DNA of 64,000 nt from Candidatus Uhrbacteria bacterium (GTDB lineage: Bacteria > Patescibacteriota > Patescibacteriia > UBA9934 > GWF2-40-263). The stretch covers positions 130,936 to 194,935 of the forward strand of contig JAERTI010000038.1 of NCBI GenBank assembly GCA_016844925.1, read 5' to 3'. The notes beneath the pieces are model-generated. The model was not told the origin of the DNA and ran no database searches. It saw nothing but the letters and a program-made list of their open reading frames with translations. Position numbers and translations under genes: made by a program. Shown piece after piece: positions 4,339 through 53,991 of this stretch (within the stretch, counting starts at the first letter, position 1; every line of letters starts with the position of its first letter).

Positions 4339-5064
4339 ATGTCTAAAACAATTTCAGTACGATCAATTCTTTCCGTAGCTGTTGTGGCACTTATTGCTGC
4401 AGTAGTTATGCCGGCACTTAGCGTTTCTGCTTCTGATGGTGGAACGGGATTCGGCGAGGACAGAGAGAGGCCACGACATCGTCCAGGTGTTCCTGTAGAA
4501 GTCGTTTCAGTGGGAGAGGACGTTATCGAGGTAACGTTAGCAGCGGTTCCTGGAAAAATTGCCGACGAGCATGACATTCAGGCTGGTGCAGAGATTACGG
4601 TAAACGTAAGTGAAGAAACGGTTTACAAGCTCGACGGTGGAGAGGGAAGTCTGACAGATCTTGAGGCAGGAGAGAAGATTTATGTGATCGGACGTATCGA
4701 CTTTGAAACATTAAGCGTTGATGCACGATTGATTACAGACAAGCAAAAGAAACCATTCCGCGTCGGTGAAGTTGTGGAGGTTGATACCGATGCCAACACA
4801 ATCTTGGTAACGGGACCAAATCTGGAGGAAGGTGAATACATTCTCATTACGTACGATGATGAGACTCAGGTCAATCAGGATGGTGAAGCAGCCGACGAAG
4901 GTGCAATCAGTGTTGGTGACAAGATCCATGTTCGAGGAGAGGTGAATCTTGAGTCTGAGGATTATAAGGTAGAGATTTCTGCCGATGGGATCCAGCTCTG
5001 GGAAGAGACGATGCCAAAACCGCATCCAAACCACTTCCGTGGAGGTATGCACAACGAAGCATAA
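4339..5064 (+). CDS. secreted hypothetical protein (signal peptide)
   Basis: N-terminal signal-like segment SILSVAVVALIAAVVMPALSVSASDGG. It is cotranscribed with the sigma/anti-sigma pair. No known motif. Confidence 0.55.
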   Translation: MSKTISVRSILSVAVVALIAAVVMPALSVSASDGGTGFGEDRERPRHRPGVPVEVVSVGEDVIEVTLAAVPGKIADEHDIQAGAEITVNVSEETVYKLDGGEGSLTDLEAGEKIYVIGRIDFETLSVDARLITDKQKKPFRVGEVVEVDTDANTILVTGPNLEEGEYILITYDDETQVNQDGEAADEGAISVGDKIHVRGEVNLESEDYKVEISADGIQLWEETMPKPHPNHFRGGMHNEA

Positions 5065-5071
5065 GAGAAAA

Positions 5072-5098
5072 ACAGCCCGATAGGGCTGTTTTTGTTTG
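5072..5098 (+). terminator. rho-independent terminator
   Basis: Hairpin cagcccgatagggctg followed by the T-run tttttgttt. Confidence 0.7.
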
Positions 5099-5156
5099 AG
5101 AGGAAAAGAAAACCGACCAGCGTAAAGGTCGGGGTGTGTCGGGGGTCCGACGGTTA

Positions 5157-5327
5157 CTAGAAACCGTTGATGAGCGGGAGCGGCGGCTCGGTGACGTCTC
5201 CCGTGGGGAGGATTCCTGCGCAGACAAGGGCGCTCCACAGGATGAAGCCCAGCATGAGCAGGATGCTCACGCGCATGACCCATTCCCAGGCGGACGGTGG
5301 TTCGTCGTTTTGTCGATGTCGTTCCAT
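5157..5327 (-). CDS. candidate small membrane protein (~56 aa)
   Basis: Minus-strand ORF with an ATG at 5325-5327. A GGAGG sequence sits 3-4 nt upstream on the minus strand. There is one hydrophobic helix (VSILLMLGFILWSALVCAGIL). It lies in a GC-rich patch upstream of cysS, which appears leaderless. Confidence 0.25.
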   Translation of the reverse strand: MERHRQNDEPPSAWEWVMRVSILLMLGFILWSALVCAGILPTGDVTEPPLPLINGF

Positions 5328-5433
5328 TCGACCTCCAGGCAATGAGACTATGGGGATTTCTTCGAGGTGTCAACAGTTCCCAAGTACTTTGCGTCGACCT
5401 GAGGGTCGATTGTTTGTTATACTCACACTCGAT

Positions 5434-6807
5434 ATGAACATTCGACTCTACAACACGCTTACGCGTCAGAAGGAGGATTTTAAGCCTATTCATGAGGGGA
5501 AAGCGGGGATCTATGCCTGTGGGCCGACAGTGTATTGGTTTGCTCATGTTGGTAATTTCCGATCGTTTATTTTTTCAGACATCCTTCGTCGAACGCTTGT
5601 TCACTGCGGGTTGGACGTGACGTTTGTTATGAACATCACAGATGTAGGTCATCTCACAGACGATGCGAGTGATGGGGAAGACAAGATGATTGTTGCCATG
5701 AAGCGAGAAGGGAAGACGGCGTATGAGATTGCTGAGTTCTATACGCAGGAATTTTTGAAAGATGTCGAGCGGTTGAATATTTTGTCTGCTGATGTGTACC
5801 CACGTGCGACGGAACATATTCAGGAGCAGATCGATATGGTCGTAGCGTTGGAGAAGAATGGTTACACGTACAAGACGAGTGATGGCATTTATTTCGACAC
5901 GTCGAAACTAAACGACTACGGACGCCTTAGCGGGCAGAGTGCTGAGGAAAAGATGGCGGGTGCTCGGATCGACATGGGGGAGAAAAAGAATCCAACAGAC
6001 TTCGCACTCTGGAAGTTTTCACCGACGGATGCGCAGCGGGATATGGAGTGGGAGTCGCCATGGGGGAAGGGTTTTCCTGGTTGGCACATCGAGTGTTCAG
6101 CGATGTCGGCGAAGTATCTCGATGTTCCGTTTGATATTCATACCGGCGGTATTGATCACATTGCTGTTCATCATGAAAATGAACTTGCTCAGACAAAAGG
6201 GGCTGCCAATGAGCTTCAGGCAAATATTTGGATGCATGGGGAGTTTCTCGCGGTAGACGGCGGGAAAATGAGTAAGTCGCTTGGGAATCTGTATACGGTC
6301 GATGATCTGATCGAGAAGGGCTATGACCCATTGGCTCTACGGTATCTGATGTTAGGAGCACATTATCGAACAAAGCTTAACTTCACATTTGAAGCGCTCA
6401 CAGCGGCTCAGAATGCCCTACATCGGTTGCGAGAGACGGTGCGGAGTTGGGAGAAGCCGGAGGGGCGTTGTGTGGAGCTTGAAGAGCGTTTTAGTGAAGC
6501 GTTAGCGGATGATTTAAACACCCCTCAGGCCCTAGCGGTTCTGTGGGAGCTGATTGATGGGGATCATCAATCTGGAGCAAAAGCACAGACGCTTCTGAGC
6601 TTTGATGAGGTTCTTGGGTTGGGGTTACAGGAGTATGTAGGTGTCCCTCTCGACATTCCTGCACAAGTGCAGGCTCTGGTGGATCAGCGCAAGACGGCTC
6701 GAGCGGAAAAAGACTGGGCGCTCTCGGATGAATTGCGCGATAAGGTGATTGAACTTGGCTATGTCGTTGAAGATACGGAGCAGGGTCAGGTTGTGAAAAA
6801 AGGATAG
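5434..6807 (+). CDS. cysS: cysteine--tRNA ligase
   Basis: The translation starts MNIRLYNTLTRQKEDF...YACGPTVYWFAHVGN (HIGH-type motif), continues ...FDIHTGGIDH, and contains KMSKSLGN. The ORF-track N-extension from 5167 is not conserved. The motif TGtTATACT lies 7 nt before the ATG (extended -10). Confidence 0.92.
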   Translation: MNIRLYNTLTRQKEDFKPIHEGKAGIYACGPTVYWFAHVGNFRSFIFSDILRRTLVHCGLDVTFVMNITDVGHLTDDASDGEDKMIVAMKREGKTAYEIAEFYTQEFLKDVERLNILSADVYPRATEHIQEQIDMVVALEKNGYTYKTSDGIYFDTSKLNDYGRLSGQSAEEKMAGARIDMGEKKNPTDFALWKFSPTDAQRDMEWESPWGKGFPGWHIECSAMSAKYLDVPFDIHTGGIDHIAVHHENELAQTKGAANELQANIWMHGEFLAVDGGKMSKSLGNLYTVDDLIEKGYDPLALRYLMLGAHYRTKLNFTFEALTAAQNALHRLRETVRSWEKPEGRCVELEERFSEALADDLNTPQALAVLWELIDGDHQSGAKAQTLLSFDEVLGLGLQEYVGVPLDIPAQVQALVDQRKTARAEKDWALSDELRDKVIELGYVVEDTEQGQVVKKG

Positions 6808-6869
6808 AAACAAGACCGCAGGTTTATCCCCTGTGGTCTTTTGTTTTTGTGGTAAAATTGCTTTGGAAT

Positions 6870-7439
6870 ATGCCTGACCCAAACCGCGCAGAAGAAAAAG
6901 AAGCTCCGATAAAAACGGAGCAGATTTCGGCACCTGAACAAGTACGAGAAGTTCCGGCAGCACCTGAGGTTACCCCTGAGGCAGTTTCGGCTATTGAAGC
7001 TGAACCGACTGTAGAGGCGGCACCAGAACGTGAGCCTGAGCCAGAAGAGAAGGCGGTCGAAAAAGTGACCGAAGCACCTGTTGTTCAAGAGCCTGTCACC
7101 ACACCCGTTGTGGCTCCGGCACCTGCACCTCAGAAAGATCGTCTAGAAAAAGAAATCGAGGCGATTATGGAAGAGGATCTGATGGATCTCTATCTAAAGC
7201 TTCCGCCAGATAAGCAGCAGGCGTTCAAGCTCAAGGGTGAAGAAACGCTCGGAAAGATTCGGCAGCTTGTGACAGCTTCAAAGATTAACGCGAAGAAGAT
7301 TTTCTCTTTGATTCGCGATTGGTTGAAGATGGTTCCTGGAGTGAACAAGTTTTTTCTTGCTCAGGAAGCCAAGATCAAAACAGATAAGATTCTCCTTGTG
7401 ACGGAGGAAGAAAAGAAACGCGCACAAGACGAACTGTGA
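6870..7439 (+). CDS. Pro/Glu/Ala-rich hypothetical protein with a conserved-looking C-terminal domain
   Basis: The N-terminal half is low-complexity PE/A-rich (APEVTPEAVSAIEAEPTVEAAPEREPEPEE). The C-terminal ~90 aa are non-repetitive. Its stop overlaps the start of the next gene (ATGA). The start is uncertain (ATG at 6870, or TTG at 6849). Confidence 0.5.
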   Translation: MPDPNRAEEKEAPIKTEQISAPEQVREVPAAPEVTPEAVSAIEAEPTVEAAPEREPEPEEKAVEKVTEAPVVQEPVTTPVVAPAPAPQKDRLEKEIEAIMEEDLMDLYLKLPPDKQQAFKLKGEETLGKIRQLVTASKINAKKIFSLIRDWLKMVPGVNKFFLAQEAKIKTDKILLVTEEEKKRAQDEL

Positions 7440-12393: not shown

Positions 12394-12467
12394 TCCCGGA
12401 TCGTCTAATGGCAGGACGAGTGGTTCTGGTCCACTAAATCGGGGTTCGAATCCCTGTCCGGGAACCA
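12394..12467 (+). tRNA. tRNA-Gln (anticodon CUG)
   Basis: Manual fold of a 74-nt sequence. Acceptor TCCCGGA/TCCGGGA. D-stem GTCT/GGAC with GG in the loop. Anticodon stem AGTGG/CCACT with loop TTCTGGT, giving anticodon CTG. T-arm CGGGG-TTCGAAT-CCCTG. Discriminator A plus an encoded CCA. Confidence 0.8.
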
Positions 12468-12509
12468 AGAAAGAACTGATGTAGTAGCATCGGTTTTTTC
12501 TTTTGCCCT
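12442..12509 (+). repeat. attL-type direct repeat: tRNA-Gln 3' end (T-arm to CCA) plus the downstream terminator-like hairpin
   Basis: gggttcgaatccctgtccgggaaccaagaaa matches 21787-21817 perfectly (31 nt). The following ~35 nt (hairpin catcggttttttctttt) are near-identical to 21818-21849. Confidence 0.75.
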
Positions 12510-12518: not shown

Positions 12519-13667
12519 CTAGGCTTCGAACGCATTATCTGAACCAGAACGTGGAGCATAGACATTTTGTGATGTGTCCGTATTGTGTCCAAAGGTGACC
12601 CATTCGCACTCTAATGTCATCACGGCTTGTCGCGCTGTTTCGTCTGCCACATGAGCATATCGTTCCGTCATTTTAATGGAACTGTGACCCATGAGCTTCT
12701 GCACCACACGCGTCGGAATCCCTTTTGCTGTTAGATCGGTCCCAAAGGTGTGGCGCAGTGTGTGCCAGCCAATTTTTCGCAACCCAACACGCTTGCAAGT
12801 ACGTGCCAATGCCTCTGACGACGCAGATCGACTCAAGGCCCCGCCATTTGCAGGACTTGTAAACACGAGCGACCCGTTATTAACGAGTTGCCACGTCGTT
12901 AGCGCTTGGTGTAGCGACGGTGTCATGTGGGCATATCGCACCTGATTGGTTTTAGTAGACTCAATCTTCTTGCCGGCTTTGTTTCGCCGAATACAGATAT
13001 GACCAGTTTCCAAATCAACGTCTTCCCAATGCAGAGCTAGTAGCTCCCCAATGCGCATTCCTGTGCGTACTGCCATAAGAGCCATGAGATTCCACCTCGG
13101 TTCTTTCTCGTCTGAAAGCAGCTTCTTGATCTCACTCTCTTTGAGGAAGTCAATCTTCGGCGCCTGCGATTTCAACCATTGCACGCTGGGAAGTTTCTTA
13201 ATATAGCCCCACTCATGTGCGCATTTAAGAACCTTGTTTAGAACGCTCAAATGATTATTGATCGTCTTGGCACCAATAGGCTTGCCGCGGAACGTCTTAC
13301 TTTTCTGACCACCCTTGAATCGCTCGATGGTTTGCGTAGTAACATCTCCTAACTTCAATTTCCCGAAGAATGGCACAAGGTGATTGTTTAGGATTGCCGC
13401 CTTACGCTTCACCTCTGATGACTTGTTATTCGTCCGTACATACGTTTCTGTCCACTCAGTCGCAAAGTCAACAAAGAGCGTGTCGCTTTTGTCTTCTTCT
13501 GGTTTCTTCGCGTAGGGCGACCCTGTGCGTAGATAGTTTTCCGTCATGATGCGCTCGATCGCTAGCGCACCCTTCTTGGTTCCATCCGGCGAAACTTTAC
13601 GAAACCTATCGCGTCCAAGACGTATGTCGGCATGCCATTTTCCTCGAATGATATTTGCCATACTCAT
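12519..13667 (-). CDS. int: tyrosine-type site-specific integrase
   Basis: The C-terminal catalytic region has R...HTLRHTFGTDL...MGHSSIKMTERYAHV (the R-H-R-Y tetrad). It is adjacent to a tRNA. Confidence 0.9.
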   Translation of the reverse strand: MSMANIIRGKWHADIRLGRDRFRKVSPDGTKKGALAIERIMTENYLRTGSPYAKKPEEDKSDTLFVDFATEWTETYVRTNNKSSEVKRKAAILNNHLVPFFGKLKLGDVTTQTIERFKGGQKSKTFRGKPIGAKTINNHLSVLNKVLKCAHEWGYIKKLPSVQWLKSQAPKIDFLKESEIKKLLSDEKEPRWNLMALMAVRTGMRIGELLALHWEDVDLETGHICIRRNKAGKKIESTKTNQVRYAHMTPSLHQALTTWQLVNNGSLVFTSPANGGALSRSASSEALARTCKRVGLRKIGWHTLRHTFGTDLTAKGIPTRVVQKLMGHSSIKMTERYAHVADETARQAVMTLECEWVTFGHNTDTSQNVYAPRSGSDNAFEA

Positions 13668-13879
13668 ACTTCTGTTATCGCTTCAAAGCTCGATTCATCC
13701 AAGAATCGTGCCACGTCCGATTCACGGATCCTCAAAAGGCCACGGATCTTGCAGAACCGAATCTGTCTGTCATCTATCATCCGGTAGACAGTCTGCCGTG
13801 AAACCCCTAGAAGTTTTGCCACAGCTATCGGATCCAGTAATCGTTCGATGACGCTAGATTGTTGCCTTGAAGCGTCCAT
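13664..13879 (-). CDS. xis: excisionase/AlpA-family helix-turn-helix DNA-binding protein
   Basis: LLDPIAVAKLLGVSRQTVYRMIDDRQIRFCKIRGLLRIRESDV is an excisionase-family HTH. Its stop overlaps the integrase start. The internal ATG at 13879 was chosen (72 aa); the ORF track gives 13948. Confidence 0.7.
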   Translation of the reverse strand: MDASRQQSSVIERLLDPIAVAKLLGVSRQTVYRMIDDRQIRFCKIRGLLRIRESDVARFLDESSFEAITEV

Positions 13880-13964
13880 ATTTAATTGTGAATGAGCAGG
13901 TCCGAGTGAAAGTATGTTGGTATGCCATACCTTCATTGGGCTACTCAATTATGCGGTCAGTTTG

Positions 13965-14507
13965 CTAATTTTCAAAATGATTTAGGTTTCTGAAGTTGGG
14001 AGCTAGTCGCTGTTGTCGTTGTAGGAGTCTCCGATAGCGTTTCGTTGGTCGCCCGTGCCAGTATTTGATCCTCAGACTTTCAATGATGTGCAACACACGG
14101 TCATAAGTACAAAATCCTTCAAAGGCTCCGACCAGTCCGCTGCGTGGTAGACGCTGTGAGCGATATGCAAGGCCGTAACACTCTCTGCATCCAAAGTACT
14201 CTCCTACGAGATACAGAACGGCACAGCGGCGCTTACACGGCCTTCCTCTAATGACAAGTGGGCAAATGAACCAGTAGCGCTGGCCGCCAAAGAAACAAGG
14301 GGTTGATGTGAGTTTAACTGGATAGTTCTGTGGTCCATGCCGAAACCTTGCATGTCCGTTGTTTGCATCAACAGATACTTTTGCCTCCAGTCCCTGTGAC
14401 CATCGGATACCACCACTCTTTGCTACTGGTTCGAAGTATCCATACTCACGTAGGTCAAATACACTCAGGTTTTCATGTCTTTCGCAGTCTGGTCGGTGCA
14501 TACTCAT
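13965..14507 (-). CDS. Cys-rich hypothetical protein (island-encoded)
   Basis: ORF of 180 aa with several Cys pairs (CPLVIRGRPCKRRC...CRECYGLAYR). No known family recognised. Confidence 0.45.
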   Translation of the reverse strand: MSMHRPDCERHENLSVFDLREYGYFEPVAKSGGIRWSQGLEAKVSVDANNGHARFRHGPQNYPVKLTSTPCFFGGQRYWFICPLVIRGRPCKRRCAVLYLVGEYFGCRECYGLAYRSQRLPRSGLVGAFEGFCTYDRVLHIIESLRIKYWHGRPTKRYRRLLQRQQRLAPNFRNLNHFEN

Positions 14508-15101: not shown

Positions 15102-15788
15102 TCACTCAGTCCTTTGGGCTTTCTTAACTTCTTTTTGAAATCGATAGATCATTCTTTTAATCCGTAGTGTCTCTCGTATGAATTCTTCATCTGTTGCATC
15201 ACTAGACACTTCCACCAACTGTGAAAACATGGGTTTCACTTCGTTGCCATCTGCATCAATCATCGTTTTTAACGATTTCCACTTGCAGTAGTAGCGATAA
15301 GCCTCCCCTAAATCTTCCTTGCTAGTAATAGGTTCCATCCAGTCCGAATCAGAGAGTTTTGACATGATCCTGCCAACAACTAGGTATGTATCATTCCAAT
15401 TCTTTTTTGAAACAGGTCCATGAAGTTTAACCGTAACGGTATCGGGTTCTTTAGGTTTTTGAATCACGCGAATGTTACTTGGTGCCGCAATGATTTGATC
15501 ACCAAATTTTACAATCTCCTCTACTGCGCCCCTGAATTGTTCTCCCAACATGTTTTTCTTCATAAAAGACCCAATAGCATCTTTCCAGCCATTAAGACGG
15601 TCAGAAGATTCGCATAGCCAAGTAGTCCATGATTCGATGGCTTCAAGGTCTCGTCTGAGCAGATCACTTGGTATACCAAATTTACGACGCAGCCTATTCA
15701 GGTCCTCGATAGCCCGGTCAGAAGCAAGTAAAATATAAAGTTTATTCCTGTTAATCCGTTTGTCCGCTGGCACAGATTTTTTAGTCAT
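15102..15788 (-). CDS. hypothetical protein (island-encoded)
   Basis: ORF of 228 aa. It is the first gene of the minus-strand int-proximal block, and a divergent promoter region lies upstream (15789-16042). Confidence 0.5.
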   Translation of the reverse strand: MTKKSVPADKRINRNKLYILLASDRAIEDLNRLRRKFGIPSDLLRRDLEAIESWTTWLCESSDRLNGWKDAIGSFMKKNMLGEQFRGAVEEIVKFGDQIIAAPSNIRVIQKPKEPDTVTVKLHGPVSKKNWNDTYLVVGRIMSKLSDSDWMEPITSKEDLGEAYRYYCKWKSLKTMIDADGNEVKPMFSQLVEVSSDATDEEFIRETLRIKRMIYRFQKEVKKAQRTE

Positions 15789-16042
15789 ACTTGTGACAAC
15801 TTAACACAAAGAGATTGATTTTTCAGCAAAATACGGTAGACTGAGTTCACAATTGCCTAAACTCACATTCGTGAGCATGGCACTTAAATCACACGCAAAC
15901 AGAGACGGTCTCGTGGCCGGCACTCATTTGCGTGTGTCCATTCCCGAAAGGGTCTGGGGCGAGCTTCCGAAAGGTTGCCGTCGTCGGTTCACGGGACCTT
16001 TTGTGTTACGTGAATCTCTAATTCAAAAACACACACAAAACT

Positions 16043-16555
16043 ATGTCTGATACAAAAAAGTCCATTTACAAAAAATGGTGGTTCTGGCTTCTAACCGTTT
16101 TCATCTTCTTCATGTTTATCGGAGCGTTTGGCTCTGGACCGGTGGAAACCATCGATACACCGGCAACGGATACGGTACAAGATGATGAGTCGGTAGCGAT
16201 TATCGACACACCACGCATTCTTAGTATGACGATCGACGAGGTCCGCGATGAGCTAGGTATGCCATTGGAAGACTCCTTCATTGACCCGACCTCCGAACAA
16301 ATCTATGACGAATCCATGACATGGATGAATGAATATGAGATTAGCGATTATATGTTCGTCATTGAATGGAATGCGACCTCTAGGAACGTCACAGGCGTGT
16401 TTGTCGCAACAGATGATCCAAGTGGTGCAACCAAGGATTGGGAGGTACTCGTACCGCTTCTAGGACTCCCAGAGGACACATCTGACTACCTTATTGATGC
16501 GGTTGAGGTTATATCCGATCCGAGTCAGTATACGGGAGTAAATGTGAGTCGGTAA
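16043..16555 (+). CDS. membrane-anchored acidic hypothetical protein (island cargo)
   Basis: N-terminal TM helix (WWFWLLTVFIFFMFIGAF) followed by a D/E-rich soluble domain. Confidence 0.5.
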   Translation: MSDTKKSIYKKWWFWLLTVFIFFMFIGAFGSGPVETIDTPATDTVQDDESVAIIDTPRILSMTIDEVRDELGMPLEDSFIDPTSEQIYDESMTWMNEYEISDYMFVIEWNATSRNVTGVFVATDDPSGATKDWEVLVPLLGLPEDTSDYLIDAVEVISDPSQYTGVNVSR

Positions 16556-16612
16556 GCAACACAAAAAACACCTTTATTTTTAGGTGTTTTTTGATTAAAA
16601 TGGACAACGAGA

Positions 16613-17158
16613 TTGTTGATCGGCATGTCATTAGATAAAGATCCAATTTTAGCGGGGCAGCCAAGTATTTCGACCGGTGGTGCGGAGTACGATTTTGTGA
16701 ACCTCTCAGAATCCGTAATCGAAGTTGTGAGTATAAATGTTCAATTGGTATGGGTTATGGGAAGATTTAACAAAAGTACAACCCCAATAAGAGTTATAAA
16801 AAATGCTCAAAACATGTTCCTTAGTGAGGAAATAAAATCACGTGATGAATTTTGGAAGGAGCATTGCGCGGCTTCAATGCGAGAGCTGATGGACAAGCAC
16901 TTTCATCAAAACTGCGCAAGATTTCTCGCCTCCGTACCTAAGAGACAGCACTCGGATGATGCGAGGAAGTTGCATGAAAGATTGAACAAACATAAGGATT
17001 TTCTAAACGATTTTTCTCACTTTAAACATTCTGCGATTGAGCATGCTAAGGTTCTTCTTGGCCGTAACGTAGCGTCATTAGGTGAAGAAGATTTCGATAA
17101 ATTGTGTACCAGCTTCTTGATTGACTTAAGTGACTACTTTAGCTTCAAGAAAAGATAA
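16613..17158 (+). CDS. hypothetical protein (island cargo)
   Basis: ORF of 181 aa (the start may be later). AT-rich. It is 2 nt upstream of the 1013-aa ORF. Confidence 0.45.
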   Translation: MLIGMSLDKDPILAGQPSISTGGAEYDFVNLSESVIEVVSINVQLVWVMGRFNKSTTPIRVIKNAQNMFLSEEIKSRDEFWKEHCAASMRELMDKHFHQNCARFLASVPKRQHSDDARKLHERLNKHKDFLNDFSHFKHSAIEHAKVLLGRNVASLGEEDFDKLCTSFLIDLSDYFSFKKR

Positions 17159-17160
17159 AT

Positions 17161-20100
17161 ATGGATCAGATTGAGTTGCATAAATTGATAGACTTGATAG
17201 TAAGCAAGCCACCTAGTGATTCTTTAAAAGAAGAATTGACGGCTTTGCTGCAGATTAACGCTGATGCGCGTGTATATTTCTTCGAGAACGTGGATGACCG
17301 ATGGCTGGATTGGCTTTGGAGAAATAATTTTCTCGATGTGCTGAAGGCTGGTGTTGAAAATTCAATTCGATACAGATACAAAACCCCGGAATTATTTTAT
17401 CTATCACGAATTTCTCAAACGTCCCCAGCGCCAGTTGTAGACACCATGCTCCAAGTCGAAATCTCTAAAGAGAATTTTAACCCGGAAGTTGTCGATCAAT
17501 TTTTGCGAATCGCTAGTGAACTTCCAGCGACTGAAATTGCGAGACTTGTCTTGAAAATAAAAGAAGAAAATTGGGTTGAGTTAATGAGTGCATTCAATGA
17601 CTGGGGCTTTGAATACAAAAAGATGTTTGAAGCCTTATCTGATGCGGGAGATCATGAGTCTTTGCTGACATTAGCTGAAGCTGTATTGTCCATTAAAGAC
17701 CAAAAGGCTTATAAAGAAAATTCGGGAGATTATTTTGGCGGAAACCCATTCTACTTCAAGGACTTATCATACTCATCAGTTTTTGCGTGTCTCACCGAAG
17801 TGGCGCACGACAATGTAGAGAAGGCATTGAGTATTGCTTGCAGCGCCCTATCTGCGATAGTCCAACTTGGTGACAGGGCTGGAGAGGATAGTTACTTTGA
17901 ATACAAGGATGGGTTCTATCTGTACGATACGGATTTCTTCAAGCTTGATTTGGTTAAAGAAACGAATAACTCAGATCGTGAGAATGTAAAGTCGTTGGCA
18001 GCGAGTATAAAAAAACTCGTTCAACGTGTATTTGAAAATCGTAATAAAGAGACCTCATCGAACATATTTGAAAAATATATTGAAGCGCTCCCATCCAGCC
18101 CTGCGATGTGGAGGTTGAAACTGTATGTCCTTAGTTTGCACCCAGAGTCCTTAAAAGAAGTTGCCAAAAAATACTTCTCCGCACTTTTTGACTCAATAAA
18201 ATCAAACAAGGGCTACTATGAAATTGCATCGGGCGCAGAATACAAGAAATCTCTCAAGAAGTGTTTTAGGATTTTTGATTCAGAATATCAACGCGACTAT
18301 GTTGCCAATGTCTTTAAATGCTTCTCTAGTAAACGAGATGATGAAAGAGAGGAAGGGTTGTACCAACGTACTGGTTGGGAAATCCTTTCTTCGATTTGTG
18401 ATAGCTTGAATAAAAAAGAACAAGAAGAGTGTGAAAAGGTTTTTGGTAAAAAATGTAATGCCGAGTATGAGCCACAACCGCTCATAGGAAAGATGCGCGG
18501 CGGCATGATTTCGCCACGCGGCCTTATCTCACAAGAAGAATTCGATGCCATTGACGTTGTGGACATTGTTGAAAAATTGAAAGATGAATGGACGCCTGAA
18601 CGTCTTAAGGAATCGAATCATTTTGACAATTTTACAAATCCAGTAAATGCAGAGGGTGTCGGGTCACAAATTCAATCCAGCATAAAAAATCGTCTAACTG
18701 ACTTCGCTCCTCATGCAAGTCTCTTCTTTGAAAGAGGTATCTTAGATGAACATTACACCCAATCTTTTTATAGAGGTATCTGGGAAGCTATTCGTGCAAA
18801 TAAAGAAGAGGCTCGCAGAGTTGACTGGGGTAGCCTAGTGAATGCAATTTTTGACATCGTCCGGTCAGGGGCAGAAAAGCCCTTTGATTTCAGTAAGCGA
18901 GAACGTGAAAGATTTGGCGGGTGGCTTGCTAGTTGGGAGGGTGTCCACAGCATCATTGCAGACGTATTGCAGGAGTTGTTAAGTGAAGTAGATGGTGAAC
19001 CTTTGGTGAACTTTGCTGAAGACAGGAATGAAATTTTCAAAATTCTCTCGTACCTTTTGCAGAATTCCGATCCGAAACCAGAGGATGAAGAATTGGAGAC
19101 GGCGGTGTCTAAGACACGATTGCCGGGCGGGAAGGATGAATACCTTGTTAGTGACCCGTTTAGTATTGCAATAAATTCAGTTCGAGGACGAGCCTATCAA
19201 GCATTGGCTCTGTTTGTGTATCAGGACGGAAAGGGTTTCCTGAAAGATGCTGCCGTAAAAATTGCTGATGATGTGAAAGGTGTGTATGAGCGGCTGTTAA
19301 AAGGAGAGAATACACGAGCTATTATGTTCTTGTTTGGGCATTATCTGCCATCTTTCTATTTTAGAGATAAGGAATGGATTCGTAGCCTCTTGCCATCAAT
19401 CTTTACAACGAATACAGAGAGGTTGTATTTGTACATCGCTGCATGGGAGGGTTATCTTGCGAACAATTTATACGAAGAAATCTTCTTTGAAACAGAATTT
19501 CAAAAACTCTATATGCGAGGGCTTGGAGTGGCCGGAAGTCAAGATCCAAATCGTAAGTATTTCAAAGAACCGGATGAAGGACTAGCAGTTCACCTTGCAC
19601 TAGCTTTCATGGTCTATCATCAGAAATTTGGTTTTGACGATGAGTTGTTTAAAAAGTTTTGGCAGCAAGATGTTGAACAGCAAGTAAAATTTGTCAATTT
19701 CATTGGACGAATGTTTGTATCCGGTGATAACAAACAGGCAAACAAACTCTTAGAAAATGAGCCGCTTGTGAAGCAGCGATTGATCGAATTTTGGGATTGG
19801 GCTATTGCGAACAAAGAAGAGAAGAAATTATTCTCAGGGTTCGGTTATTGGATGAGTCTTGACAAAAATATCTTTGAACCAAAGTGGCTAGCAGAACGGA
19901 TTGCGCAAACTTTGGAAAAAACAAGTGGTGCATTGGATTGGGAATATGGTCTAAGTAAAACCATCATCAAATTAGCCGAGGAAGCACCGGAAGAAACATT
20001 AGCGATAATTAGATTGTATTTATTGGAGGGCGGAGTGCGTAATAAACAACTGAAAATGCCATTTATGCGGTCTGATGAATGGTTTGAGGCGATTGGCATT

Positions 20101-20202
20101 CTATACAAAAAAGCAGAAACAAAAGATGGTACATATAGGCTTATCAATGACCTAATCGCTGAAGGGGGAAATCTCTTTTGGAAATTAAAAGAAGTTCTGT
20201 AA
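17161..20202 (+). CDS. large (1013 aa) predicted all-helical hypothetical protein (island cargo)
   Basis: A long uninterrupted ORF in an AT-rich context. It has no Walker A/B, no nuclease, no LanC/CHG motif and no TM helix. Confidence 0.6.
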   Translation: MDQIELHKLIDLIVSKPPSDSLKEELTALLQINADARVYFFENVDDRWLDWLWRNNFLDVLKAGVENSIRYRYKTPELFYLSRISQTSPAPVVDTMLQVEISKENFNPEVVDQFLRIASELPATEIARLVLKIKEENWVELMSAFNDWGFEYKKMFEALSDAGDHESLLTLAEAVLSIKDQKAYKENSGDYFGGNPFYFKDLSYSSVFACLTEVAHDNVEKALSIACSALSAIVQLGDRAGEDSYFEYKDGFYLYDTDFFKLDLVKETNNSDRENVKSLAASIKKLVQRVFENRNKETSSNIFEKYIEALPSSPAMWRLKLYVLSLHPESLKEVAKKYFSALFDSIKSNKGYYEIASGAEYKKSLKKCFRIFDSEYQRDYVANVFKCFSSKRDDEREEGLYQRTGWEILSSICDSLNKKEQEECEKVFGKKCNAEYEPQPLIGKMRGGMISPRGLISQEEFDAIDVVDIVEKLKDEWTPERLKESNHFDNFTNPVNAEGVGSQIQSSIKNRLTDFAPHASLFFERGILDEHYTQSFYRGIWEAIRANKEEARRVDWGSLVNAIFDIVRSGAEKPFDFSKRERERFGGWLASWEGVHSIIADVLQELLSEVDGEPLVNFAEDRNEIFKILSYLLQNSDPKPEDEELETAVSKTRLPGGKDEYLVSDPFSIAINSVRGRAYQALALFVYQDGKGFLKDAAVKIADDVKGVYERLLKGENTRAIMFLFGHYLPSFYFRDKEWIRSLLPSIFTTNTERLYLYIAAWEGYLANNLYEEIFFETEFQKLYMRGLGVAGSQDPNRKYFKEPDEGLAVHLALAFMVYHQKFGFDDELFKKFWQQDVEQQVKFVNFIGRMFVSGDNKQANKLLENEPLVKQRLIEFWDWAIANKEEKKLFSGFGYWMSLDKNIFEPKWLAERIAQTLEKTSGALDWEYGLSKTIIKLAEEAPEETLAIIRLYLLEGGVRNKQLKMPFMRSDEWFEAIGILYKKAETKDGTYRLINDLIAEGGNLFWKLKEVL

Positions 20203-20282
20203 ACAAATCAACTATGACTCATTTTACTAAACTGGATATAAATAAGATGAACGTTTTGCGGGTAGGTTAACAGCGGAGTTGT

Positions 20283-20891
20283 ATGTCTAACGAATGGAAC
20301 GATTTAATTTCTCATCCAAACCACACCTTGCGTATTGGTGGAATTGAGATTGAGGTACATGATCAAGTATTTACACCAAATCCGAGTATTACATTTTCTA
20401 GCTCCATGATCCTCGATCATTTACCAGATGTGAATGGTAAACGCATACTAGATGTTGGCTGCGGGACAGGAGTTGTTGCCGTTCATTGCGCACTCGCTGG
20501 CGCAGGGCATGTTACGGCGGTCGACATTTCTAATAAGGCCATCAATAATACTCGTATCAATGTTGCGAAGCATGGCGTGGAGAAAGTTGTCACGGTGAAA
20601 AAATCAGACCTTTTTAGTAAAGTAACTGGACAATTTGATTATATTTTTGCAAACCTACCTATCTTAGAGGAGGTTTGGTCAGCGGATACGAACGTGGACA
20701 ATCTGATCGAACGTTTTGTCACAAAATATCCTGAATATCTCAATAGGGACGGATCAGCATTCTTTGTGTGGGGTTCTTTTGCTGACATCGCACCTGTGCT
20801 GGCGTTATTAGATCGGTGTAGAATTATTTTCACCCAAACGTCAGTAGAAAAACTGGGATACACGTGGACGTTGTTTGAATTGAAAAAATGA
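20283..20891 (+). CDS. class I SAM-dependent methyltransferase (PrmA/MTS small-domain-like)
   Basis: Motif I ILDVGCGTGVVAV. The acidic residue VTAVDIS. FDYIFANLP resembles the PrmA/MTS (D/N)-x-P-type motif. The assignment as a protein or RNA MTase rather than a DNA MTase is tentative. Confidence 0.7.
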   Translation: MSNEWNDLISHPNHTLRIGGIEIEVHDQVFTPNPSITFSSSMILDHLPDVNGKRILDVGCGTGVVAVHCALAGAGHVTAVDISNKAINNTRINVAKHGVEKVVTVKKSDLFSKVTGQFDYIFANLPILEEVWSADTNVDNLIERFVTKYPEYLNRDGSAFFVWGSFADIAPVLALLDRCRIIFTQTSVEKLGYTWTLFELKK

Positions 20892-20892
20892 T

Positions 20893-21594
20893 ATGCCATT
20901 AGATAAAGTTACCTTTCAGAAGGATTGGTATGACCGCCTTGTATCCAAAACCAATGAAAAGACCGTTTTGCCTGACGCCATTAAATCACTTGTTTCAGAT
21001 CAGAGTGGTCATTGCTTGGAGATTGGCCTTGGAACATCGCCATTCTTTGCACAAAAGCTCGCCGATCAATTCGACAAGTACACCATTTTGGAAAAAGAGA
21101 CGGGAGAATATGAACTCCCAACTAACGCAGAGTTTATTGTTGGCGACTGGGAGTCGTATGGGTCACCAGACTTGTATGATGTCATTCTTGCATCTCATGT
21201 CGTCTACTACTTTGACGACAAACGTGCTGCTATCGACAAGATGGTTAACAAGCTCACAGAGAATGGCAAGCTACTCATTGTTGTGAATGGGTGTGATGGT
21301 GATTACGGACCGCTCAAATTAGCGTTTTCCGCTATGGTCAATCATCCGTATACGTTCACATACGATGTGGTTAAAGCTGTCTTGGACAGATACACATATA
21401 CCGAGCATAGCTTTCCGACAACGATTCCATTTAGTTCAGGTACCGATTTATTCGAAACACTCCGACTTTCCTTTGATCAGTACCCTGATGAGTATGAGGC
21501 GCACAAAGACGAGTTAATCACTTACTACGAAAATCAGACAAAAGACAATCTGTTTGTTATCAACCAGAAGGTGTTCGTTATTCAATCAAAATAA
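20893..21594 (+). CDS. class I SAM-dependent methyltransferase (Methyltransf_11/25-like)
   Basis: GHCLEIGLGTSP (motif I), an acidic loop, and DLYDVILASHVVYYFD (motif II/III). It starts 2 nt after the preceding MTase. Confidence 0.65.
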   Translation: MPLDKVTFQKDWYDRLVSKTNEKTVLPDAIKSLVSDQSGHCLEIGLGTSPFFAQKLADQFDKYTILEKETGEYELPTNAEFIVGDWESYGSPDLYDVILASHVVYYFDDKRAAIDKMVNKLTENGKLLIVVNGCDGDYGPLKLAFSAMVNHPYTFTYDVVKAVLDRYTYTEHSFPTTIPFSSGTDLFETLRLSFDQYPDEYEAHKDELITYYENQTKDNLFVINQKVFVIQSK

Positions 21595-21786: not shown

Positions 21787-21849
21787 GGGTTCGAATCCCT
21801 GTCCGGGAACCAAGAAAAAACCGATGCAAGCGCATCGGTTTTTTCTTTT
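21787..21849 (+). repeat. attR-type direct repeat (partial copy of the tRNA-Gln 3' end plus terminator hairpin)
   Basis: The 31-nt sequence gggttcgaatccctgtccgggaaccaagaaa is identical to 12442-12472. It is followed by the hairpin accgatgcaagcgcatcggt plus TTTTTTCTTTT. No 5' acceptor half is present upstream. Confidence 0.75.
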
Positions 21850-32831: not shown

Positions 32832-34054
32832 ACATGTTTTCACCTGGGCGCAGGGAGCGTAGGGAGGAACCAGCATTTCATTACGAGCTATTAGAGAATC
32901 CGAAAACACGAGAAGATCTTTTAAGGGGCATGGATAATCTCATGGAGACTATTCAGGACCGAGATGTTGATACGGTGGTCTTCCTTGATCGCTCAGCACG
33001 ACCACTCTCCTGGCTTATGCGGGAGCGATGGCGATTATCTGATAGCGACAAGCCCATGCCGGAGATGAAGTTTGTGAATATTGGCCTAGCCACTTCGGTT
33101 CATCCTGGATCGAGAGATCTCACGATTCCAGGAGGAGGGGCGTATTATCCATATCCCTCATCTAGTTCCCGACAGGATTTTGTGAGGAAGAAGATGATGA
33201 GCAATCAATGGTTATCACCTGAGGATGTTCCCACCCGATGGTCGGAGGGGTTGTTGGATCATGAAGATGAGGTACAGGAACTTGAAGATGTGTTTGGGTC
33301 GAACTTAGATGGAAAGCGTGTTTTGGTGGTTGATGAAATGGTAAACACGGGAAAGAATCTTTTAACGGCGGTCTCCCTTTTTTCTTTGATGTTTCCAAAA
33401 TTGAAGGAGGTTCAGGGAACAGCGTTCAAACTTTCTAAGGGGATGGGGTATGACGAAGACCGGAAAGCAATTCCTTGGTTAAAGATGCCTGGCATGACTG
33501 GCGTACTGGAGCTGCCAGACAGGTTATTCCAGTCGGGAGCGATTACCGCGGAAAATTTGGAGAGTATTCGTGATGCACTTAGGCAAGAAAGGAAACGTGA
33601 GGTGAAGACATTGGGTGAGTCGCTTTTACCCGCGATGAATGTGTTGGATAAAGTCGTGGATCAGTGGGATGAGATTAAGGCTCATAAGGGGTTTGATCAG
33701 CGGTACATTACGGTGATTGAAAGAGATCTGGAATCCGCTCGTAAAACGATGAGAGCCTTTCTCGATACGGGTGAGCATGGTTTTACACCTGAATACGAAA
33801 AACAGATGTACGATTTGTCTATCGCGTTCGGAGGGTTAAGTAATGATGTGGGAGATGCGCCATTTGCACAGATGTTGCATGAGGCCGCGCATCTGACTGA
33901 TAAGGTTGATTATGAGAAGGGGCACAAAACGCTTCAGGAGATCGATCAATACCTGGATGCCGATTATGCTGACTTGGAGGCGTTGAGAGCGCGTGCCACG
34001 ACTCTACGAAAGGAGATTAAGGAGCTTGCAAAAGAGACGTACGAAGTCTTTTAA
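32828..34054 (+). CDS. phosphoribosyltransferase-domain protein with long C-terminal extension of unknown function
   Basis: Type I PRTase PRPP-binding motif VLVVDEMVNTGKNLLTAV. The C-terminal ~200 aa are unassigned. Its start overlaps the stop of the beta-CASP gene. Confidence 0.6.
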   Translation: MNMFSPGRRERREEPAFHYELLENPKTREDLLRGMDNLMETIQDRDVDTVVFLDRSARPLSWLMRERWRLSDSDKPMPEMKFVNIGLATSVHPGSRDLTIPGGGAYYPYPSSSSRQDFVRKKMMSNQWLSPEDVPTRWSEGLLDHEDEVQELEDVFGSNLDGKRVLVVDEMVNTGKNLLTAVSLFSLMFPKLKEVQGTAFKLSKGMGYDEDRKAIPWLKMPGMTGVLELPDRLFQSGAITAENLESIRDALRQERKREVKTLGESLLPAMNVLDKVVDQWDEIKAHKGFDQRYITVIERDLESARKTMRAFLDTGEHGFTPEYEKQMYDLSIAFGGLSNDVGDAPFAQMLHEAAHLTDKVDYEKGHKTLQEIDQYLDADYADLEALRARATTLRKEIKELAKETYEVF

Positions 34055-34120
34055 AAAAGAACCATTGCACCCTGGTCATGCCAGGGTGTTTTTGTTACTG
34101 TCGCGGCGAAGGAGGACAAC

Positions 34121-35362
34121 ATGTCCAACAAGCTGCCCGATGACGTCTCTCCTGAGACGTTCGCACTGCACGGAGGGTACGACCCCGCTCGATCCGAGGG
34201 GGCGCTCAAGCCGCCCGTGTTTCAGACCTCCACGTTCGTGGCAACCACGGCCGAGGAGATGGCACGATGCTTCGAGCAGGCCTATGGCCTTGATGGTCAG
34301 CCTCCACGTGCGCCCGATGAGCTCATCTATTCGCGCGTGGTGAACCCGAACCTGCAGATCACCGAAGAGCGGTGGGCGCGGTTCGAGGGAGCTGAGGCGG
34401 CCGCCCTGTTCGCCAGTGGCATGGCCGCTATCTCCACCACGCTGCTCACCCTGCTACGGCCGGGAGATACGGTGATGTACTCCACCCCGGTGTACGGTGG
34501 GACGGACTACTTCATGGAGCACGTGCTCCCGGCCTTCAAGATCAAGACGGTTTCGTTCCCGGTGACGCTCTCTGCCGAGCGGATCTACGCCAAGTGGATC
34601 AACATGGATCCCAGACCCAAGGTCATCTATCTCGAGAGTCCTGCCAACCCCACACTGGAGCTGGCGGACCTCGGTGGAATGGCCGGGGCATTCCAGGGAC
34701 CGGAAGGCCGTCCGCTCATCGTGGTGGATGGGACCGTGCTCGGCCCGGTGTTCATGAAGCCGCTGGCGCTGGGGGCAGACCTGGTGCTGCACTCGGCCAC
34801 CAAGTCCATCGGCGGTCATAGCGATCTGATTGCCGGCATCGTCGCCGGCCCCGCGTACCTCGTGGGACAGATCAAGGCGATGCGAACCATCATGGGCCCC
34901 ATCTGCGACCCGCAGACGGCGTGGCTCATCGCCCGCAGCCTCGAGGACTACAAGGTCCGCGTGGAAGCAGCGCAGCACAAGGCCCTCAAGGTCGCGCGCT
35001 TCCTGCAGGAGCACGATGCTGTGCACCGGCTCTACTACCCGGGCATGCATCCTAGTCGCGATCAGGGGGAGCGCTTTCAGCAGATGTGCAGCGGTCACGG
35101 CTCGCTCATGAGCTTCCGTGTCCGAGGTGGCCAGGAGGCGGCCTACCGCGTGCTCAACGCCCTGCGCGTGATCAAGCTCGCGGTCTCTCTCGGGGGCACC
35201 GAGTCGCTCGCTGAGCATCCGCGGACGCACACCCACAGCGACATTCCGCTGGCGGCCCAGGACAAGATGGGCATCACGCCCGACCTGATCCGTCTCTCTG
35301 TCGGTCTGGAGGATGCCGACGACTTGATCGACGATCTGGATCAGGCGCTGGAGCTGATCTAG
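34121..35362 (+). CDS. Cys/Met-metabolism PLP-dependent enzyme (cystathionine gamma-synthase / methionine gamma-lyase / O-acetylhomoserine sulfhydrylase family)
   Basis: The SATKSIGGHSDLIAG PLP-lysine region and the overall family pattern. Good SD (AAGGAGG). The gene is conspicuously GC-rich. Confidence 0.85.
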   Translation: MSNKLPDDVSPETFALHGGYDPARSEGALKPPVFQTSTFVATTAEEMARCFEQAYGLDGQPPRAPDELIYSRVVNPNLQITEERWARFEGAEAAALFASGMAAISTTLLTLLRPGDTVMYSTPVYGGTDYFMEHVLPAFKIKTVSFPVTLSAERIYAKWINMDPRPKVIYLESPANPTLELADLGGMAGAFQGPEGRPLIVVDGTVLGPVFMKPLALGADLVLHSATKSIGGHSDLIAGIVAGPAYLVGQIKAMRTIMGPICDPQTAWLIARSLEDYKVRVEAAQHKALKVARFLQEHDAVHRLYYPGMHPSRDQGERFQQMCSGHGSLMSFRVRGGQEAAYRVLNALRVIKLAVSLGGTESLAEHPRTHTHSDIPLAAQDKMGITPDLIRLSVGLEDADDLIDDLDQALELI

Positions 35363-35479
35363 AACACACGCCGACCCTCATGTGAGGGTCTTTTTTCTTT
35401 TAACAAACAATCATGCCGCCATTGACATCTGTACAAAAACGGACTAGGTTACGGCGTCGCATACGGCGGCAGAAAGGGG

Positions 35480-35989
35480 ATGAGGCGCATGGGCGCCTTT
35501 GGTAACGTTGAGCAAAAAGCCGAAAGTCTTTGGAGAGCGGGTCTGCGTGAGCAGCTCGATGGCAACCTCTCTGAGGCCATGGACTTGTACGAGCAGAGCA
35601 TCGCTCTGCACCCAACAGCCGAAGCGTTTTCCTACAAGGGGTGGGCGTTCTCGCATATGGGGAAGTTGGATGACGCGGTGGACGCGTGTCTGGAAGCTAT
35701 TCAGCTCGATGCTGGTTTGGGCACCCCCTACAACGACATCGGTGCCTACCTGGTGGAGATGGATCGTGAAGACGAGGCGGTTCTCTGGTTTCAGCGCGCG
35801 AAGGAGGCACAGCGGTACGACACTCCTCAGTTTCCGTATCTGAACCTCGCTCGTCTCTACATCCATCGTGGGTATCTGGCCGGAGCGCTCCTCGAGCTAC
35901 AAACGGCAGAACTCCTCGCCCCCGAGGATCCGCGAGTCGGCCAGTTGGTCGCTCAAATTGGAGAACGGATGGAGGAACAGGATTCTTAG
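35480..35989 (+). CDS. tetratricopeptide-repeat protein
   Basis: Three or four TPR-like helices (AMDLYEQSIALHP...YKGWAFSHMGKLDDAVDACLEAIQLD...). Confidence 0.65.
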   Translation: MRRMGAFGNVEQKAESLWRAGLREQLDGNLSEAMDLYEQSIALHPTAEAFSYKGWAFSHMGKLDDAVDACLEAIQLDAGLGTPYNDIGAYLVEMDREDEAVLWFQRAKEAQRYDTPQFPYLNLARLYIHRGYLAGALLELQTAELLAPEDPRVGQLVAQIGERMEEQDS

Positions 35990-36077
35990 CAAGAATCCAC
36001 AACGCAATCTACAGACCTCACTGAGGTCTTTTTCTTTTCAATCACCCCTTTATCCGCTACCATGCGCGCATACAACT

Positions 36078-41291: not shown

Positions 41292-41801
41292 ATGTCTATG
41301 AAGAATCAAAAAGGATTTACACTTGTGGAGCTGCTGGTGGTGATCGCGATCATTGCGCTCATCATTGTGTTCGCCGCTGTGGCTGTGAATAGCGCACGCT
41401 CTAAGACGCGTGATGCAACACGACTTTCAACCGTGCGACAAATGCAGTCTGCGCTTGAGGATTACTTTAACGAGTTTAATACGTACCCTGACGGGGACCT
41501 GCTGCCATTGGGCGATGCTTCAGAGAGTGCCTGTCTTGGCTCAACGGGATTTGCCGCAAGTTGTTCTGGAGACAGCTCGACATTCTTGCAGATTGTCCAA
41601 TCAACACACGAGGATGGTCTTGAGGGGATCGTCACCTGTGGTGAGCCGTCCAGAAAAGCCTTCTGTTACACCCAGCTTGAGGGAGGTGATGAGTACGTGA
41701 TACATTTTGAACTAGAAAACATGCTTGGATCTGTTGGTCTTCAGGCGGGTGTGAACTGCGCCACTCCTGAAGGTATGGAGGCGGGGATCTGCGCTGATTA
41801 A
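41292..41801 (+). CDS. type IV pilin / pseudopilin (prepilin-type N-terminal cleavage/methylation domain)
   Basis: KGFTLVELLVVIAIIALI is the class III signal with G(-1) F(+1) E(+5). The ORF-track N-extension from 41187 overlaps pilM and is rejected. Confidence 0.85.
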   Translation: MSMKNQKGFTLVELLVVIAIIALIIVFAAVAVNSARSKTRDATRLSTVRQMQSALEDYFNEFNTYPDGDLLPLGDASESACLGSTGFAASCSGDSSTFLQIVQSTHEDGLEGIVTCGEPSRKAFCYTQLEGGDEYVIHFELENMLGSVGLQAGVNCATPEGMEAGICAD

Positions 41802-52967: not shown

Positions 52968-53078
52968 AGTGCTCAGAAGTATACCAGAAAATGGGGGTGT
53001 ATCGATTGACAGAGCGCGTTATCTATGGTGGACTTGCCTCGTCCACACATTTGTTCACATGGATACAAGGAGACCACC

Positions 53079-53828: not shown

Positions 53829-53859
53829 GAGCCGGTCTTGACCGAACACGCTTCGGTCC

Positions 53860-53886
53860 GCGTCCCCAGGGACGCGTTTTTTCTTT
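53860..53886 (+). terminator. rho-independent terminator
   Basis: gcgtccccagggacgc followed by gttttttctttcttc. Confidence 0.7.
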
Positions 53887-53991
53887 CTTCAATAAAATCA
53901 AGTCAACGCCTTTGGTGGGTTGACGTTTTGCGATTATTCCGCTAATTTTCGTCCCTCACGTCCGAAGTGAACATCTACAAGGGAGGACTAC

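Follow-up and report, generated by a model that had tools for sequence, protein, structure and literature searches.

Which of the neighbouring genes on an integrated island form a functional unit, and what might that unit do? The question is raised by a run of four plus-strand genes in a 64,000-nucleotide stretch of DNA from a Candidatus Uhrbacteria bacterium (GenBank assembly GCA_016844925.1, contig JAERTI010000038.1, positions 130,936 to 194,935), the whole of which is referred to here as the window. The run (16613-21594) lies on an island inserted at a tRNA-Gln gene and consists of a small gene, a large gene and two genes for class I S-adenosylmethionine (SAM) methyltransferases, MT1 and MT2. 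An earlier reading made from the letters of the DNA, hereafter the sequence-only reading, had taken the large gene and the tandem methyltransferases as the unit, with the small gene as an incidental neighbour, and had found it unlike any described system. Comparison with related loci points to a different unit, in which the small and large genes encode two parts of one split protein related to the sensor region of the defence protein Dsr1. This pair may well be an anti-phage sensor-effector system, to which MT1 and MT2 very probably do not belong.

A two-gene core encoding one split protein

The four open reading frames have exactly the coordinates and the operon-like spacing that had been claimed for them, with gaps of 2, 80 and 1 nt. 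The first runs from a TTG codon at 16613 to 17158 (181 aa), while gene callers prefer the ATG at 16625 (177 aa), and it is followed by the large gene (17161-20202, 1013 aa), MT1 (20283-20891, 202 aa) and MT2 (20893-21594, 233 aa). These frames represent real genes rather than chance frames, since at least 195 homologues of the large protein, all of them unannotated, were found at 40-58% identity. Homologue lengths are around 1,000 aa in 84 of 120 cases and 1,150-1,216 aa in 28 of 120.

The partner of the large gene became apparent when an iterated hidden Markov model (HMM) of the small protein was applied to 80 loci. Matches were obtained in 64 loci, in 50 of them as the adjacent upstream gene and in the other 14 as the N-terminus of a fused protein of ~1,180 aa, where the small domain occupies residues ~40-190. 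The gap between the small and large genes lies between -38 and +40 nt in 49 of the 50 two-gene loci, and at the remaining one (L027) it amounts to 143 nt across a run of N. Moreover, a profile of 79 small-domain proteins gave 257 matches in a search of 1.84e9 representative proteins, and the large-family domain directly follows the small domain in 55 of the 56 matches of at least 300 aa, the exception being a fusion of an FRG domain to the small domain. Among these 1.84 billion proteins the small domain occurs with the large family only. Because the profile matches fall either on the upstream gene or on the N-terminus of a fused protein, the two genes encode one ~1,180-aa protein after fission, and the comparison demonstrates that they correspond to one predicted functional protein split into two polypeptides. 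The 181-aa gene is accordingly a constant partner that encodes the detached N-terminal domain of this protein, and not the incidental gene as which it had been treated.

Two different points of fission were distinguished. In type A loci the small protein ends in ...RQLDxHxEID, and in type B loci the large protein begins with M[DNS]QIELHKKID. Junction analysis places the window in type B, its large protein starting with MDQIELHKLID, the equivalent of the helix that closes the small domain in other family members. Pairwise BLAST of the 181-aa protein against the fused homologues found no match, and the relationship is visible to profile searches alone. The AlphaFold2 model of the small subunit is an eight-helix bundle (mean predicted local distance difference test, pLDDT, 81.8), and an alignment of 79 diverse small sequences shows R86, H132 and F164 to be invariant and the motif AxSLRE to be near-invariant.

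Homology of the large subunit to the Dsr1 sensor

Dsr1 is reportedly the defence-associated sirtuin 1 of Garb et al. 2022. In the large protein of the window, residues 269-985 (717 residues) match the PADLOC HMM for Dsr1 (PDLC04166) over profile positions 556-1197 of 1227 with an E-value of 2.7e-20, and 16 of 25 relatives match the same model (best E 1e-27) and, of the 5,027 PADLOC models, no other. The PADLOC search that the sequence-only reading had proposed thus returned a specific defence model. A second line of evidence comes from a bridging protein encoded on a Legionella plasmid, WP_070322551.1, which aligns by tblastn with large-protein residues 622-1006 (22.6% identity, E 4e-7) and itself matches the Dsr1 HMM at 8.4e-34. 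Taken together, these matches establish, at the level of protein sequence, homology of the large subunit to the C-terminal sensor region of Dsr1, and this homology covers the C-terminal two-thirds of a protein that had been described as unlike any known system.

The AlphaFold2 model of the large protein, computed from an 87-sequence alignment, is an all-alpha solenoid (pLDDT 90), and no Pfam or NCBIfam family matches the protein. The earlier description of it as a non-enzymatic, all-helical repeat protein therefore stands, but the view that it lacks recognisable relatives does not, because it matches the Dsr1 defence HMM. No meaningful match was found in PDB sequence searches with the large protein and its family profile, nor did tblastn of the large protein match any of 50,697 GenBank phage genomes.

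The Legionella gene deserves mention in its own right. It is located on the L. pneumophila plasmid NZ_CP016871.1 (positions 4708-7077 of locus L124) and is annotated as a 789-aa "hypothetical protein"; it encodes a sensor of the Dsr1 type that occurs on conjugative plasmids. Its product starts at Dsr1 profile position 469, an IS3 transposase gene lies directly upstream, and IS256 copies are found farther away on both sides; insertion of an IS element has probably truncated a Dsr1-like gene here.

The two methyltransferases

The enzymes encoded downstream of the pair conform largely to their first description. MT1 carries the motif FDYIFANLP and matches Pfam MTS at 3.4e-23 (82.6 bits, cutoff 23) and PrmA at 2.8e-13, as expected for the PrmA/MTS-like enzyme that it had been taken for, and it also matches NCBIfam PRK14968.1-3 at 6.7e-29, below the cutoff of that model. 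For MT2, which had been called Methyltransf_11/25-like, the Methyltransf_11 assignment holds marginally (22.9 bits against a cutoff of 21.2), and Methyltransf_23 reaches 26.3 bits (cutoff 27). Curated models hence recognise the class I SAM-binding core clearly in MT1 and marginally in MT2. The proposal that MT1 does not belong to the DNA-methylating type is borne out as well. Its motif IV reads NLPI and not (D/N)PP(Y/F), the combination of a (D/N/S)PP(Y/F/W) motif with a target-recognition domain that marks DNA N6/N4 methyltransferases was not found, and its length of 202 aa would leave no room for such a domain. The Pfam N6_Mtase match of MT1 reaches just 5.7e-5, and its PADLOC match to mad2, the N6 DNA methyltransferase of the MADS system, covers the SAM-binding core only (profile positions 280-398 of 492).

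Whether these enzymes belong with the pair was judged from the loci compared with the window, which comprise 79 loci fetched from GTDB species genomes, four loci from IMG/VR and two further contigs (L125 and L126), 85 in all. Homologues of MT1 or MT2 near the large gene were found in none of the 79 genome loci, none of the four IMG/VR loci and neither of the two contigs. The gene-neighbourhood comparison that had been suggested as a check on co-occurrence of the triad consequently speaks against the large gene and the tandem methyltransferases as a unit. No relative of MT2 appeared in the metagenome scan, and the best metagenome relatives of MT1 are generic HemK-like proteins (25-35% identity), beside which no MT2-like gene occurs. 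The sole other downstream non-DNA methyltransferase seen, at L125, is a KsgA/RrnaAD housekeeping gene. Since homologues were found in none of the 85 loci, MT1 and MT2 appear to be orphan passengers of this one island, translationally coupled to each other, and the locus comparison makes it highly probable that the conserved module does not include them.

A contrary interpretation would be that all four genes form one module, in which the methyltransferases modify the large scaffold or its target and thereby support a methylation-dependent effector or defence function. Such a module is suggested by the common strand and close spacing of the genes, by their similarly low G+C content and by the MTS/HemK/PrmA-like, amino-group-methylating type of MT1. 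A terminator scan detected nothing resembling a terminator between the large gene and MT1, so that co-transcription of the four genes is possible and MT1 and MT2 may be transcribed together with the pair in this island. Together with the shared low G+C content, this allows for a local functional link between the pair and the methyltransferases and in this respect counts against confining the unit to two genes. On the other hand, a conserved four-gene module is hard to reconcile with 85 other loci that lack MT1 and MT2, with an MT2 that has no relative and an MT1 whose relatives are generic, and with the housekeeping nature of the L125 enzyme, and we consider it very improbable. The best explanation is that the island carries two unrelated kinds of cargo, the small and large pair and the MT1/MT2 pair. 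In addition, the findings that the sequence-only reading had named as decisive against its own proposal did not occur: the large protein is not a confident homologue of a housekeeping family, nor did MT1 and MT2 turn out to be rRNA or tRNA methyltransferases conserved at syntenic positions. More generally, the locus illustrates that same-strand, tightly spaced island genes need not form a functional unit, and that comparison across loci can separate a two-gene core from orphan methyltransferases.

Distribution and genomic context

Among 185,579 GTDB species genomes 117 matches were found, distributed over at least eight phyla, with carriers in the Patescibacteria, Caldilineaceae, Nitrospirales, Omnitrophota, Verrucomicrobiota, Fibrobacterota and others. 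Of the families represented in 132 flanking genes, the most frequent are N6_Mtase, Eco57I, MmeI_Mtase, ResIII, TaqI_C and N6_N4_Mtase, and PDDEXK_1, Mrr_cat and Phage_integrase also occur repeatedly. At seven loci (L003, L005, L010, L013, L016, L022 and L044) a tRNA gene lies 0.2-3 kb upstream of the module, and at L069 a tmRNA gene (1800-2189) takes this position, giving eight tRNA/tmRNA loci in all. This arrangement suggests that the module commonly travels on integrative elements targeting tRNA or tmRNA genes, as it does in the window. The closest relatives reside on a serine-recombinase element and behind an hsdMSR operon.

A recurrent neighbour is a type IIG-like methylase-endonuclease gene (Eco57I/MmeI/TaqI_C, 740-1,185 aa), which is found directly upstream of the pair and on the same strand at ~14-15 loci, mostly of Patescibacteria (listed as L004, L007-L010, L014, L020, L024, L040, L044, L060, L063, L067, L076 and L080). 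Gaps of 0-2 nt sometimes separate it from the pair, and a Helicase_C protein of ~590 aa often precedes it. The whole arrangement may form a larger, co-transferred defence cassette.

The position occupied by the small gene in the window is filled differently elsewhere. A transmembrane-anchored helical protein is encoded there at six genome loci (L004, L010, L016, L021, L024 and L063), and the upstream protein of the IMG/VR locus L081 aligns with these transmembrane-anchored partners. A CHAT-like protein was found at L014 (Pfam, 1.5e-4) and an LmuA-like protein at L009 (PADLOC, 5.3e-13), and in Caldilineaceae an FRG domain, corresponding to the PADLOC candidate PDC-S15 (2.8e-19), is fused N-terminally to the small domain. 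These loci show that the upstream slot is modular and that the gene pair resides in a mobile and defence-island context. Since a constant sensor is combined with interchangeable output modules, the arrangement bears the signature of a defence sensor-effector system.

Two observations on these loci are of separate interest. The large gene is present on four contigs that IMG/VR classifies as viral (L081-L084), as a fusion or accompanied by an upstream partner. Locus L013 contains, within a few kb of the module, a 16S rRNA gene (711-2836) from an uncultured bacterium into which a group I intron (1480-1986; Rfam Intron_gpI, 67.6 bits) is inserted.

Proposed mode of action and nature of the small domain

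We regard it as fairly probable, judging from homology and gene context, that the pair acts against phages as a sensor-effector system whose sensor is of the Dsr1/Avs7 class, and the idea of an unrecognised anti-phage module, which the sequence-only reading had kept as a fallback, fits the evidence. What triggers the pair, how its small domain acts and what follows are inferred. A conserved phage protein, which by analogy would be the major capsid protein, would be bound by the solenoid and alter its conformation or oligomeric state. This change would switch on the small R/H domain, to which the Q..H helix of the large subunit may add the remainder of a composite site. The small domain could then act as a metal-independent nuclease of HEPN-like or pP_pnuc_1-like type, or as an adaptor for an effector provided in trans, and cleavage of nucleic acid or another toxic output would lead to growth arrest or abortive infection.

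A nucleolytic activity is hinted at by three features of the small family, the first being the invariance of R86 and H132. The Pfam family pP_pnuc_1 (PF18165), a predicted pPIWI-associating nuclease, gives weak matches (E < 1) in 21 of 79 relatives, the best at 7e-5, and the sequence P0308 scores 26.6 bits and so exceeds the gathering cutoff of 26.3 bits. In addition, R/KQxxxH, which resembles the Rx4H motif of HEPN proteins, is present in 151 of the 176 sequences that have the helix concerned in the same chain.

Several observations weigh against the proposed system or its nucleolytic version. The small protein of the window has no Pfam match at all, and where pP_pnuc_1 matches do occur they span only ~30 of the 133 profile positions (~10-40). 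The arginine of the Rx4-6H motif is replaced in 25 of the 176 sequences (14%) and is absent in type B, the type of the window. The small domain is never paired with another sensor, unlike typical shuffled effectors. On the side of the sensor, Foldseek comparison of the large model with the PDB retrieved generic HEAT/ARM solenoids (FANCI, karyopherins, CAND1) at template modelling scores of 0.15-0.3, and no solved DSR2, Dsr1 or Avs7 sensor was among the fold matches; the structure search recommended by the sequence-only reading upheld the all-helical architecture but returned no specific relative. Furthermore, conservation along the large protein is fairly uniform and shows no hypervariable patch.

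The last of these points would also suit a pair without an immune role, that is, a protein for maintenance of a mobile element or for interaction with the host, for instance as a scaffold, a chaperone or an addiction module, that merely has a common ancestor with the Dsr1 sensor. A function of this kind agrees with the absence of a recognisable enzymatic domain, with the many carriers among Patescibacteria, whose biology is unusual, and with the presence of the gene on the four viral-classified contigs. Specific homology to a validated defence sensor, the exchange of LmuA-like, CHAT-like, FRG/PDC-S15 and transmembrane modules upstream, the flanks rich in restriction-modification genes and the sporadic, transfer-like distribution all argue in the other direction, and we deem a non-immune role improbable.

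Attempts to assign the small domain to an enzyme class gave little. Foldseek of the small model against the PDB found nothing (best E 0.34), the small-family profile had no meaningful match among PDB sequences, PADLOC gave scattered matches at chance level only, and no SIR2 match was found by Pfam in the 79 family members. In the window, the QIELH helix belongs to the large protein and has no R before it, and a HEPN dyad was accordingly not found. A canonical HEPN RNase was considered as a candidate identity of the small domain and rejected, the arginine being neither conserved nor present in the subtype of the window.

The domain might be an adaptor rather than an effector, since it never occurs with another sensor and since FRG-small fusions exist. 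In such a system the Dsr1-type sensor would carry the R/H domain as a mere adaptor or regulatory cap, and killing would fall to a host factor, an effector in trans or sequestration of the phage protein. Besides the exclusive association with this sensor family, an adaptor would fit the FRG-small fusions, and perhaps also the LmuA-like protein, in which a recognisable effector is placed N-terminal to the small-like region, as well as the lack of a conserved HEPN dyad and of any known enzyme among the structural and sequence matches. Against an adaptor, the invariance of R86 and H132 in 79 sequences, combined with the AxSLRE motif, resembles an active or ligand-binding site more than a surface for packing. 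Furthermore, at most loci, the window among them, no second candidate effector adjoins the pair, and homology between the transmembrane partners and the small domain is unproven (hhalign of the two families gave a probability of 18%). On balance we find the adaptor function unlikely, if not negligibly so. Quite unlikely, too, is the proposal that the small domain represents a new class of immune effector, with a composite nuclease site formed by R86/E87/H132 and the Q..H helix or with a non-nucleolytic output, in which case the family would constitute a defence system not named before and typical of Patescibacteria and Chloroflexota. If this proposal were true, the Q..H helix of the composite site would be contributed by the second polypeptide in the island described here. 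In any event, a helical domain with invariant arginine and histidine offers a concrete target for new effector chemistry.

The integrated island and other features of the window

That the four genes are cargo of a tRNA-integrated island, as the sequence-only reading had stated, was confirmed at both borders. The island extends over 9,345 bp, is inserted at tRNA-Gln(CTG) (12394-12467, plus strand; ARAGORN, and Rfam tRNA at 56.7 bits) and is bounded by a 63-nt direct repeat (family D1 of the repeat search), whose copies at 12442-12504 and 21787-21849 are spaced 9345 nt apart and share 90% identity, the first 31 nt being exact. The left copy, attL, consists of the 3' 26 nt of the tRNA gene and 37 nt downstream, and attR contains the copied tRNA-Gln 3' end and a downstream terminator hairpin, seen as a terminator-like hairpin at 21812-21847. 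The island therefore combines a tyrosine integrase beside a tRNA gene with a repeat of the tRNA 3' end at its far border. Its G+C content of 0.40-0.46 is lower than the ~0.50 of the surroundings, and the public run SRR13374099 yielded a separate 9,374-bp contig identical with the island (L001, offset 12442).

Four genes on the minus strand occupy the left part of the island. They encode the 382-aa tyrosine integrase (12519-13667; Pfam Phage_integrase 2.3e-35, Phage_int_SAM_3 2.1e-8), a 90-aa excisionase-like HTH_17 protein (13664-13936; PF12728, matched on the identical Logan contig L001 at 1222-1494), a 180-aa cysteine-rich, zinc-ribbon-like protein (13965-14507) and a 228-aa protein (15102-15788). 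The 180-aa and 228-aa proteins have no match in Pfam, NCBIfam, PHROGs or PADLOC and presumably serve replication or regulation of the island. On the plus strand, a gene translated as a 170-aa protein with an N-terminal transmembrane helix (16043-16555) precedes the small gene; a terminator scan found a strong hairpin terminator behind it (16562-16593), and it appears as separate cargo, with just weak PHROG matches of Sie-like type on its transmembrane segment.

A LOOT RNA (RF03000) was detected on the plus strand at 15854-15979 with 61.6 bits (gathering score 46.4), and the gene for the 170-aa membrane protein follows 64 nt downstream. LOOT RNAs lie within ~1.5 kb of the small and large pair, on the same strand, at four independent loci (61.6-91.5 bits), which besides the window are L013 (9125-9242), L067 (9829-9949) and L069 (4654-4776). 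In three of the four the RNA is located 34-64 nt upstream of a gene for a small membrane protein, of 170 aa in the window, 159 aa at L067 and 76 aa at L069. From this position the RNA might be a 5' element that acts in cis on islands of this kind, and a further, quite unlikely possibility is that the recurring RNA is a functional partner of the module, for instance as regulator of the adjacent membrane-protein genes. A scan of IMG/VR for LOOT-like patterns gave 120 chance matches, of which nhmmer confirmed none.

Elsewhere in the window ARAGORN called a 98-nt tRNA-Ala(TGC) at 41550-41647 (plus strand) that has no Rfam tRNA match at the gathering score and may be an intron-containing tRNA, a degenerate tRNA or a false positive. 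Two blocks of elevated G+C content (0.59-0.65 against a background of ~0.50) at 34001-36000 and 53001-56000 may be further horizontally acquired segments.

Comparison with known systems

The sensor of Avs7 and Dsr1 is described as a shared, bilobed helical structure that detects the phage major capsid protein, the two sensors being homologous (PMC12803255; PMC13581612). Without a STAND NTPase, it has been found in proteins with N-terminal NADase, nuclease, kinase, HEPN-like RNase, transmembrane and unknown effectors, some of them split, the HEPN-like RNase example coming from Streptomyces sp. NBC_00271 (PMC12803255; PMC13581612). Capsid-triggered anti-phage protection is known for EcDsr1 alone (PMC13581612). 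The pair described here resembles Dsr1 in its large C-terminal helical sensor, in the layout of an N-terminal output domain followed by a sensor of ~900-1,000 aa without an NTPase, and in its defence and mobile contexts. In contrast to Dsr1, no SIR2 NADase was found by Pfam or NCBIfam in the 177/181-aa or the 1013-aa protein, a helical domain of ~175 aa taking its place; two separate genes encode the protein at 50 of the 64 loci; and the family resides mainly in Patescibacteria, Chloroflexota and Nitrospirota.

Similarly, Avs7 has a sensor that is homologous to that of Dsr1 and, according to the literature, detects the major capsid protein, whereas the present protein has no STAND NTPase. No P-loop or NACHT match was obtained in Pfam, NCBIfam or PADLOC, the AlphaFold2 model is entirely helical-repeat, and no Avs model in PADLOC was matched directly. 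The proteins in which the Avs7/Dsr1 sensor is combined with exchanged effectors follow the same concept of a shared sensor with an interchangeable N-terminal output, represented here by R/H, transmembrane, CHAT-like, LmuA-like and FRG modules. Equating the small domain with their HEPN-like clade is unproven, since a conserved Rx4-6H motif is lacking and the resemblance to the HEPN fold is weak; pP_pnuc_1 (PF18165) and the HEPN RNases RnlA, LsoA and Las1 are among the closest known systems for this domain. By its predicted domain content the pair is therefore not a Dsr1, lacking SIR2, and not an Avs, lacking the NTPase. As far as checked, in a comparison that left the supplementary tables of PMC13581612 outside, the family, its R/H domain, its two types of fission and its concentration in the candidate phyla radiation (CPR) and Chloroflexota are undescribed.

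Current annotation largely misses systems of this kind, which have no Pfam or NCBIfam match and only a partial PADLOC match. Should the pair prove to be active in defence, the Dsr1/Avs7 capsid-sensor superfamily would gain a lineage without a recognisable enzymatic effector, one that has undergone repeated gene fission at two different points and is concentrated in Patescibacteria (CPR), Caldilineaceae and Nitrospirales, bacteria whose immune repertoires are poorly charted.

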